DNA of 64,000 nucleotides, taken from NCBI RefSeq assembly GCF_044324785.1, contig NZ_CP172127.1. One strand, 5' to 3'. A program made the translations under genes and the position numbers. Source of the stretch: Escherichia coli (GTDB taxonomy: Bacteria > Pseudomonadota > Gammaproteobacteria > Enterobacterales > Enterobacteriaceae). Below are positions 40,272 to 41,006 of the stretch, piece by piece (the stretch's first letter is position 1; every line of letters starts with the position of its first letter). The notes beneath the pieces are model-generated. The model did not search any database. It had not been told where the DNA came from and saw only the letters and a program-made list of their open reading frames with translations.

Positions 40272-40293
40272 CAAAAAAGCCCGCAGCGCGGGC
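40272..40293 (-). terminator. rho-independent terminator of the two-gene moron operon
   Basis: Minus-strand GCCCGC-GCT-GCGGGC followed by TTTTTTGT; overlaps the stop of the 146-aa gene. Confidence 0.65.
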
Positions 40294-40733
40294 TATTCTT
40301 CTTCATCATTAAAAAGCGGATTGTTGTTTCCATCTGATGAAAGGAAAGGTATGTGTTCTCTTGAAAATCCAACAATGACAATTTCATTATCATTTTTTGC
40401 ATAATGAATGCATTCATTAGAATGCCTTCCGCCAGGGTTGAAATTTAAGTTAATGGTATAATTCTTAAATGTGTTTGGATACCATGTTGGCCCACAATGA
40501 TAATGCCAATAATTCTCTTGCTCATAATTGTCTGAGCCGGGAATTTTATCATGGTTATCATCAACCCACGAGGGCTTGTTTTTTCCAACAAGCGCCCTTC
40601 CATTGGCAACATCCTCTAAAAAACTTTGTATGATTTTTATTTCATCATCAGTAAGGAAAGGTCCGTCTACAGCGAAAGGGGTGTTGCTTTCCCCATGTAG
40701 AAAACTATTAGATATTCTAATGTTAAACTTCAA
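40293..40733 (-). CDS. hypothetical moron protein (~146 aa from a TTG start), low GC, no recognisable family
   Basis: The track ORF (40293-40874) has no internal Met and its ATG overlaps the upstream small gene; GGAG-N6-TTG at 40733 fits better. Sequence MKFNIRISNSFLHGESNTPFAVDGPF...WHYHCGPTWYPNTF...NECIHYAKNDNEIVIVGF...PLFNDEEE. Confidence 0.45.
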   Translation of the reverse strand: MKFNIRISNSFLHGESNTPFAVDGPFLTDDEIKIIQSFLEDVANGRALVGKNKPSWVDDNHDKIPGSDNYEQENYWHYHCGPTWYPNTFKNYTINLNFNPGGRHSNECIHYAKNDNEIVIVGFSREHIPFLSSDGNNNPLFNDEEE

Positions 40734-40753
40734 GGAAAACTCCTGATGTGCTT

Positions 40754-40921
40754 CTATTTGGAGCGAAATGCCGCCTTGAAGTCGCTGAAAGATGTTCCTG
40801 TCTGGTAAACCATATCCTTGTCGCGCTCTTTGCTTGCGCGGCCAAGCATAACTTTTCCAATGACATCCCAGCATTGCTTGGCTTGTTCATTGTGCTGAGT
40901 ACGATTTTTCAACGCTGTCAT
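40754..40921 (-). CDS. hypothetical small basic protein (55 aa), first gene of the moron operon
   Basis: AGGAGG-N6-ATG; MTALKNRTQHNEQAKQCWDVIGKVMLGRASKERDKDMVYQTGTSFSDFKAAFRSK; not in the track; hand-translated and frame-checked codon by codon. Confidence 0.4.
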   Translation of the reverse strand: MTALKNRTQHNEQAKQCWDVIGKVMLGRASKERDKDMVYQTGTSFSDFKAAFRSK

Positions 40922-40933
40922 ATCGCGCCTCCT

Positions 40934-40950
40934 TTACCTTTAAGGTAATA
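40934..40950. promoter_or_regulatory. operator-like palindrome TTACCTTTAAGGTAATA overlapping the -10 of the moron promoter
   Basis: Minus-strand promoter candidate TTGCAG (40971-40976) -N17- TACTAT (40948-40953); the palindrome spans the -10 and the transcription start. Confidence 0.5.
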
Positions 40951-41006
40951 GTACGCTATTCACCCACAGTCTGCAATCTGTACAGAATTATTTAAAGGCA
41001 CATCCC

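Follow-up and report, generated by a model that had tools for sequence, protein, structure and literature searches.

A putative type II toxin-antitoxin family with a predicted RelE/ParE-fold toxin, carried as an exchangeable cassette in an epsilon15-like prophage of Escherichia coli

Introduction

The minus strand of a prophage located within a 64,000-nt stretch of the Escherichia coli sequence NZ_CP172127.1 (the window, to which all coordinates below refer) contains two small adjacent genes, here named geneA and geneB, in a region whose GC content (0.35-0.40 over 40200-40800) is lower than that of its flanks (0.49-0.57). What do these genes encode, and is their expression a matter of the genes themselves or of the phage that carries them? 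A first-pass annotation of this DNA had described them as a self-contained accessory unit of no recognisable family, with a promoter, operator and terminator of its own, and had proposed an undescribed accessory system with the shape of a defence or toxin/antitoxin-like module. Our analysis retained the toxin/antitoxin-like module as the best reading of the locus. We consider it probable that geneA and geneB represent a new type II toxin-antitoxin (TA) family, composed of a RelE/ParE-fold toxin and a small neutralising partner. The pair, previously unannotated, looks like a swappable cassette placed in an accessory slot of an epsilon15/phiV10-like (genus Uetakevirus) prophage.

Results and Discussion

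Gene structure

Read along the minus strand, the locus consists of an antirepressor gene, a promoter, a palindrome, a Shine-Dalgarno (SD) sequence, geneA, a short gap, geneB and a terminator. GeneA (40754..40921, minus strand; WP_000125783, phrog_8607) encodes a basic protein of 55 aa (11 K/R vs 6 D/E), the putative antitoxin, and is preceded by the SD sequence AGGAGG (40928..40933, minus strand), 6 nt 5' of its ATG at 40921. The gap to geneB is 20 nt long (40753-40734); the value of 22 nt given initially was the sole numerical slip of the first-pass annotation, whose description of geneA and of a two-gene, low-GC cassette with a TTG start and a terminator agreed with the coordinates, the GC profile, the gene calls and the terminator scan. 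GeneB (40293..40733, minus strand; WP_000671198, phrog_5954) encodes a RelE/ParE-fold toxin-like protein of 146 aa counted from this TTG (at 40733), with a GGAG ribosome-binding site (40740..40743, minus strand) inside the gap, 6 nt 5' of the start.

The TTG start is supported by two observations: the Prokaryotic Genome Annotation Pipeline (PGAP) begins WP_000671198 at the same codon, and the homologues from other genera start with ATG and an MKF or MKI N-terminus at the equivalent position. The 193-aa open reading frame (ORF) which begins at an upstream ATG and overlaps geneA is therefore an over-call. This 193-residue version is the one deposited as UniProt/AFDB entry A0A3A6T6D0, an annotation error in the public record. 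Both geneA and geneB are conserved as proteins across genera, which places the two ORFs beyond chance.

A predicted RelE/ParE fold in geneB

Sequence databases gave no family for either protein. GeneB had no match in Pfam even at E<=10, none in NCBIfam and no significant match to the curated RelE/ParE profiles (PF05016, PF15738, PF06769, PF05015 and the NCBIfam RelE/ParE models), while geneA matched nothing in Pfam or NCBIfam; neither protein had a counterpart among the known anti-phage defence proteins of PADLOC-DB v2 at E<=10. A Pfam scan of 34 distant relatives of geneB returned 0 matches, PDB profile searches with a close (A1) and a broad (A4) alignment yielded no toxin, only noise such as delta-crystallin and arylsulfatase, and nothing was found for geneB in the BFVD fold library. 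In PHROGs, geneA and geneB fall into two families of unknown function. The absence of a recognisable family, claimed at the outset, thus holds for these collections, and it is the predicted structure of geneB that qualifies it.

The AlphaFold2 (AF2) model of geneB (predicted local distance difference test, pLDDT, 92.3; predicted template modelling score, pTM, 0.86) has the architecture of RelE/ParE proteins, i.e. a compact alpha/beta fold with an N-terminal strand, two helices and an antiparallel sheet. A fold search of AFDB50 retrieved uncharacterised relatives only, followed by weak RelE/ParE/YafQ matches. From this model, we regard it as very likely that the core of geneB adopts the RelE/ParE toxin fold. 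In comparison with the mRNA interferases RelE, YafQ, YoeB and HigB, to which it has no detectable sequence similarity, geneB is approximately 55 residues larger: its core is lengthened by a strand and helix at the N-terminus, by an additional, invariant GKNKPSW element and by some 28 residues inserted between strands. Its His triad is also distinctive.

The family is large. Close relatives of geneB form 34 clusters, and a profile search of 1.84 billion representatives returned 118 clusters (50% identity) from Enterobacterales, Pasteurellaceae, Aeromonas, Neisseria, Moraxella and metagenomes; a peptide-pattern scan of genome contigs, with very strict patterns, found only 9 loci. If the assignment is true, a sizeable family which is absent from Pfam, NCBIfam and PADLOC would be added to the RelE/ParE superfamily.

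The close family keeps H77, H79, H127, K51, K53 and Y111 without exception. In 34 divergent members (mean column identity 20%) the only invariant residues are both His of WHYH and the His of H-x-P-F, with G-x-N-K and H-Y nearly invariant and K51/K53 and Y111 nearly so. On the model, the invariant residues lie on the predicted strands and the C-terminal segment: the His-x-His of WHYHCG, IHY on the next strand, H-x-P-F after the last strand, and GKNK. Judged by strand order, they appear to be placed like K52/K54/R61/R81/Y87 of RelE or H50/H63/H87/F91 of YafQ. GeneB may accordingly be pictured as a translation-dependent mRNA endonuclease.

A partner protein with a common C-terminal motif

Every geneB homologue examined is accompanied by a partner ORF, located 3-31 nt upstream (approximately 3-100 nt in the Pasteurellaceae loci L018-L025) or overlapping it. 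The partners differ greatly in size, with 160-210 aa in Pasteurellaceae prophages, 102 aa in Klebsiella lambdoid prophages and 57-183 aa in metagenomic relatives. Nevertheless, 16 of 18 end in a common C-terminal motif, [S/T/N]-x-[E/D]-[D/E]-[F/L/I]-x-x-[A/F/W]-hydrophobic, which in geneA is contained in the conserved helix TSFSDFKAAF. Such a motif on varied partners is what one would expect if a toxin-binding tail had been joined to exchangeable N-terminal modules. GeneA would then be the cognate neutraliser of geneB, with this C-terminal helix docking on the toxin.

A geneA-linker-geneB fusion, modelled with AF2 from 14 paired rows, gave a pTM of 0.79, with pLDDT values of 77-94 for the geneA residues, which form a long helix, a short strand and a C-terminal helix. 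The co-fold is suggestive of a complex between the two proteins. GeneA is not RelB-, DinJ-, YefM- or HigA-like, in which it differs from the antitoxins of RelE-family toxins.

A further link to known antitoxins comes from a distant relative of geneB (P0133, locus L017), which is directly preceded by a SocA_Panacea protein (PF13274) with the short motif of geneA in its C-terminal tail. This arrangement indicates partner swapping around one toxin family. The Panacea domain has been validated by experiment as a promiscuous antitoxin (PMC8832971). The resemblance to PanA-PanT systems is limited to this relative: geneA itself has no Panacea (SocA_Panacea/DUF4065) domain, PF13274 occurs only in the L017 partner, and the consulted text of the same work (PMC8832971) does not list the geneB family with the validated PanT toxins. 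If the TA assignment is correct, the family would provide a new, very short neutralising motif carried by several unrelated N-terminal modules, and a clean case of partner swapping.

The Pasteurellaceae partners (L018-L025) have a hydrophobic N-terminus, similar to a signal peptide or membrane anchor, and keep the C-terminal motif of geneA. A membrane-tethered antitoxin-like partner would be unusual.

Distribution of the pair

Escherichia phage phiv142-3, a member of the genus Uetakevirus, matches the region at 99.8% identity, and the full cassette was found in 76 of 5,426 complete E. coli genomes, with the flanks only present in approximately 400 more. The pair also occurs in quite different surroundings. 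In Pectobacterium, a small geneA-like ORF lies 5' of a geneB homologue in an epsilon15-like prophage, also behind a Bro-N gene, and the same order (geneA-like ORF directly upstream) was observed in Proteus contigs and in Aeromonas. In the Erwinia persicina chromosome the pair stands alone between accA and housekeeping genes, with no phage nearby. The geneB family is present on 37 plasmids, including cryptic plasmids of about 3 kb from E. coli and Edwardsiella; in two of these (p1_020001 and pPB07309) the pair seems to be the sole cargo besides a Rep-like gene. In metagenomic contigs, relatives of geneB adjoin integrase, restriction-modification-like and reverse transcriptase genes.

Hence the adjacent, co-directional pair is conserved as a unit in prophages of three types, in one chromosome and in tiny plasmids. 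Sole carriage by ~3-kb plasmids, the solitary Erwinia locus and the mobile-gene neighbours are contexts typical of TA modules, and by this analogy they favour a TA function. P1 phd-doc and the TA loci of small plasmids are plasmid or prophage addiction modules. The pair shares with them its two-gene form, its status as sole accessory cargo of ~3-kb plasmids and its presence in temperate phages, and would be a candidate for the same class. The 62-aa partner ORF of the two plasmids (L037 2081-2269 and L038 477-665) is missing from the incomplete PLSDB gene tables of p1_020001 and pPB07309.

An exchangeable cassette in a fixed slot

Comparison with the related phage TL-2011b defined what is exchanged at this site. 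The two sequences agree as far as 40930 and again from 40316 onwards, so that the exchangeable cassette proper is 40317..40929 (minus strand) and consists of the two ORFs only. The promoter, the palindrome and the terminator are consequently fixed parts of the slot, and the notion of a self-contained unit which brings its own regulatory signals had to be abandoned.

TL-2011b carries in exactly the same slot, beneath the same upstream promoter and palindrome and ahead of the same terminator, a 59-aa ORF followed by a YafO-family toxin. The small-then-larger ORF layout is common to both phages, and the analogy supports a TA function for the pair. The proteins themselves are unrelated. Kinship of geneB with YafO (PF13957), suspected from a resemblance of motifs and from the shared slot, was rejected on the basis of BLASTP (E 1.5), of an hhalign comparison of alignment A1 with a 22-sequence YafO-like alignment (probability 0.1%) and of the lack of a Pfam match. 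In phages ZX5 and EC.W1-9 the slot contains a 108-aa ORF and a 167-aa protein, apparently hydrophobic in its C-terminal part.

The slot, located between the antirepressor gene and the gene of a 53-aa membrane protein, is a hot spot of cassette exchange. Three unrelated two-gene cassettes with a common promoter, palindrome and terminator were recorded, at 40317-40929 of the window, at L002 3123-3850 and at L028 1652-2453. The epsilon15-like accessory slot thus swaps toxin cassettes beneath a fixed promoter which bears a phage operator motif.

Promoter, terminator and operator palindrome

The putative slot promoter comprises a -35 element TTGCAG (40971..40976, minus strand; 3/6 to consensus, in sequence common with TL-2011b) and a -10 element TACTAT (40948..40953, minus strand; 4/6), separated by 17 nt. 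The letters of the sigma70-like promoter proposed earlier are thus present, though they match only 7 of the 12 sigma-70 consensus positions and do not appear in the output of a promoter scan, which offered GTGGCA-16-AATAAT at 41014-40987 instead. The promoter gains credibility from its layout, a -10 element followed by an abutting TTACC-N5-GGTAA palindrome, because the same layout recurs at other promoters of the prophage, including the strong promoter TTGACA-N16-TAATTA beside the repressor gene. At the other end, an intrinsic terminator (40272..40294, minus strand; stem AGCCCGC/GCGGGCT, loop GCT, then TTTTTTG) starts within the stop codon of geneB and lies in the flank common with TL-2011b. 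A search of Rfam for known RNA elements gave only a sub-threshold Trp-leader-like match, caused by the terminator hairpin.

The palindrome of the slot, TTACCTT-A-AAGGTAA (40934..40948), is a perfect 7+1+7 repeat. The window contains 18 TTACC-N5-GGTAA sites at <=1 mismatch (10 of them perfect) vs 1.0 expected, and the phiv142-3 genome contains 15 copies vs 0.57 expected. At least 13 of the window copies are prophage copies, situated in intergenic regions or at their edges. Given by the starts of their 15-nt sites, they include two on each side of the repressor gene (12855 and 12917; 13629 and 13677), one upstream of the gene in the cII position (14014), two upstream of a DUF1064 gene (15960 and 16022), two at the 5' end of terS (20286 and 20304), and single copies upstream of the portal operon (23431), of geneA (40934) and of the antirepressor (41978), as well as one between a 91-aa ORF and the tailspike (42358). 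The set, which stands ahead of early, packaging and accessory genes, has the appearance of an operator regulon that spans the genome of epsilon15-like phages; one paper on the phiV10 group (PMC9782041) contains no description of such sites.

In mycobacteriophage L5, gp71 "stoperators" are repressor operators present at many sites spread over the prophage genome. The likeness lies in a short motif found at many intergenic prophage positions, on both sides of the repressor gene and ahead of accessory genes. The candidate operators described here differ in being symmetric palindromes at or adjoining -10 elements.

The likely binder of the palindromes is the prophage repressor, a protein of 194 aa (12989..13573, minus strand) with two helix-turn-helix (HTH) regions (residues ~20-67 and ~104-148), which could read both half-sites as a monomer. 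Domain analysis of this protein found no S24 peptidase domain; prophage induction presumably proceeds through the antirepressor and not through RecA-stimulated self-cleavage.

We infer that the geneA promoter is under the control of the prophage repressor. A cassette-specific operator was considered and rejected: the palindrome at 40934 is kept in TL-2011b upstream of a different cassette, and it recurs throughout the phage. It can therefore be regarded as an operator-type site, as was first suggested, yet one of the prophage and not of the cassette. Its phage-wide occurrence and its position around the repressor gene argue for repressor control and derepression-linked expression of the pair, and against both classical antitoxin autoregulation and the constitutive expression of a "moron". 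The cassette would be expressed from the slot promoter, whose -10/+1 region lies under one of the prophage-wide operator palindromes, so that expression probably stays at a low level in the lysogen and increases upon derepression.

One may go further and suppose that this TA module is wired into the prophage-repressor regulon instead of being autoregulated, staying quiet in the stable lysogen and firing upon inactivation of the repressor, whether by SOS, serum stress or the antirepressor of an incoming phage. We put this forward tentatively, as an arrangement that is possible but has the odds against it. If true, a RelE-fold nuclease would act as an induction- or superinfection-coupled switch that shuts host translation down or reprograms it, and virulence traits of avian pathogenic E. 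coli (APEC), such as capsule expression and serum survival, would be measurably affected.

An observation from a Klebsiella lambdoid prophage is at odds with repressor control. The sole perfect TTACC-N5-GGTAA site within 20 kb lies directly 5' of a three-gene cassette with a geneB homologue (L035 9391-9405; the same site in L004-L007 at 4391-4405), and an identical 15-mer stands at the head of the Pectobacterium cassette (L008 3777). The repressor of this phage is of the unrelated lambda-CI type, with none of these palindromes around its immunity region. The palindrome may travel with the cassette, or be bound by a protein other than the repressor.

The published orf10 deletion

GeneB has already been disrupted, under another name. 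Li et al. (2020; PMC7724020) used lambda-Red to delete "orf10" of the APEC prophage phiv142-3. Orf10 is a nested, out-of-frame ORF of 52 codons (40445..40603, minus strand; MN187550 6498-6656; QGF19616.1). The recombination arms map to 40663-40604 and 40444-40385, which means that the deletion removed nt 131-289 of geneB (its central third, including GKNKPSW and WHYHCG) and left geneA intact. The nested frame is not conserved, being broken at varying places in other genera. Though put forward as undescribed, the locus thus has a published mutant of its larger gene. Literature look-ups by accession or PHROG identifier gave no other match, QGF19616 (orf10) alone leading to the APEC paper. The phiv142-3 record carries the nested 52-aa "Orf10" in place of geneB, so that the published knockout was built on an annotation error.

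The mutant grew normally in LB, its survival in serum was about 60% of that of the wild type, its kps transcripts were approximately 2-fold lower, and its loads in the blood and heart of chickens were reduced (PMC7724020). Viability without geneB, with geneA kept, is what is predicted for a toxin gene. In chicken serum most prophage genes rose, and the top phiv142-3 amplicons in quantitative reverse-transcription PCR were orf41 (log2 4.56), "orf10" (4.12, ~17-fold) and orf40 (3.68) (PMC7724020). A further palindrome copy is found just upstream of orf41 and orf40, and these data are consistent with repressor control of the geneA promoter. The virulence-associated APEC "orf10" can now be re-read as a knockout of the toxin-like geneB.

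Weighing the alternatives

Gene structure, the predicted fold, the conservation and contexts of the pair and the multiplicity of the operator come from the data, whereas toxicity, RNase chemistry, direct neutralisation and the identity of the operator-binding protein are inferred. Several points weigh against a TA function for the pair. No sequence-level link connects geneB to any toxin family in Pfam, NCBIfam, PADLOC or the PDB profiles, and the correspondence of its catalytic residues follows strand order and not superposition. The fused-chain model was built on only 14 paired rows. GeneA has no DNA-binding domain recognisable by Pfam, NCBIfam or PADLOC and no cassette-specific operator was found, so that classical autoregulation is not evident; many type II systems, but not all, have an antitoxin that autoregulates through its own promoter. 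Tight repression of the slot promoter in lysogens would mean that a role in addiction or abortive infection requires a further step. Moreover, the serum-resistance and kps phenotype of the deletion is not predicted by a simple addiction module, and complementation was reported with an "orf10" plasmid whose boundaries are unstated (PMC7724020). If its insert was the nested 159-nt ORF alone, geneB would not be the cause of the phenotype.

The mutant data bear most directly on an alternative in which geneB is a RelE/ParE-fold factor of lysogenic conversion or regulation that causes no growth arrest and reshapes host expression (e.g. of capsule genes), with geneA as its modulator or chaperone. The internal deletion in geneB with its effects on serum survival, kps transcripts and colonisation, together with the strong rise of the transcript in serum, would be explained directly in this way (PMC7724020). 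These effects are, however, of small size, the ORF to which they were ascribed is mis-annotated, and the serum induction is not specific, because it was shared by most prophage genes. A toxin accounts better for ~3-kb plasmids with no other cargo and for the pairing with a Panacea domain, and the invariant His triad suggests an enzyme. We therefore consider a conversion factor unlikely, though it fares best among the competing explanations.

A TA module could also act through a different target, with a ParE-like toxin which poisons DNA gyrase and does not cut mRNA. We hold this to be improbable.

Equally improbable is the view that geneA and geneB are early lytic genes for host shut-off or take-over, switched on only after loss of the repressor and forming no addiction or defence module. 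It draws on the operator of the slot promoter, which is the same as at the promoters flanking the repressor gene and at other early promoters, and on the joint rise of the orf10, orf41 and orf40 amplicons in serum. The pair is, however, also found outside phages, on tiny plasmids and in the Erwinia chromosome, and sister phages differ at the slot and can dispense with it; any role in the phage cycle is therefore not essential.

That the 52-aa Orf10 is the real gene and geneB a spurious long ORF, as the deposited annotation and the reported complementation (PMC7724020) would have it, is hardly credible and was rejected, since the geneB frame stays open and conserved in every homologue, even at 37% identity, folds confidently and is called by PGAP, whereas the alternative frame is interrupted from genus to genus.

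Neighbouring genes and RNAs

The slot is bordered upstream by the gene of a BRO-N/Ant-type antirepressor (41021..41758, minus strand; phrog_130, E 4.6e-52) and downstream by that of the 53-aa membrane-associated protein (40039..40200, minus strand; phrog_14503). Just upstream of the antirepressor gene, Rfam identified a C4 antisense RNA (41849-41762, minus strand; 78.6 bits) and an isrK-type RNA (41944-41868, minus strand; 74.7 bits), as well as an a1/b1 target element (41957-41905, minus strand) whose 38.4 bits are under the Rfam gathering score of 46.7. By their sequence, the RNAs encoded at 41762-41957 represent a putative P1/P7-type immI antisense control of the antirepressor in a podovirus prophage. 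Further upstream, the C-terminal domain of the neighbouring BRO-N antirepressor is found again by itself, as the 91-aa ORF (42024-42299, minus strand; both match phrog_450/phrog_15539), which has a palindrome copy of its own upstream, at 42358.

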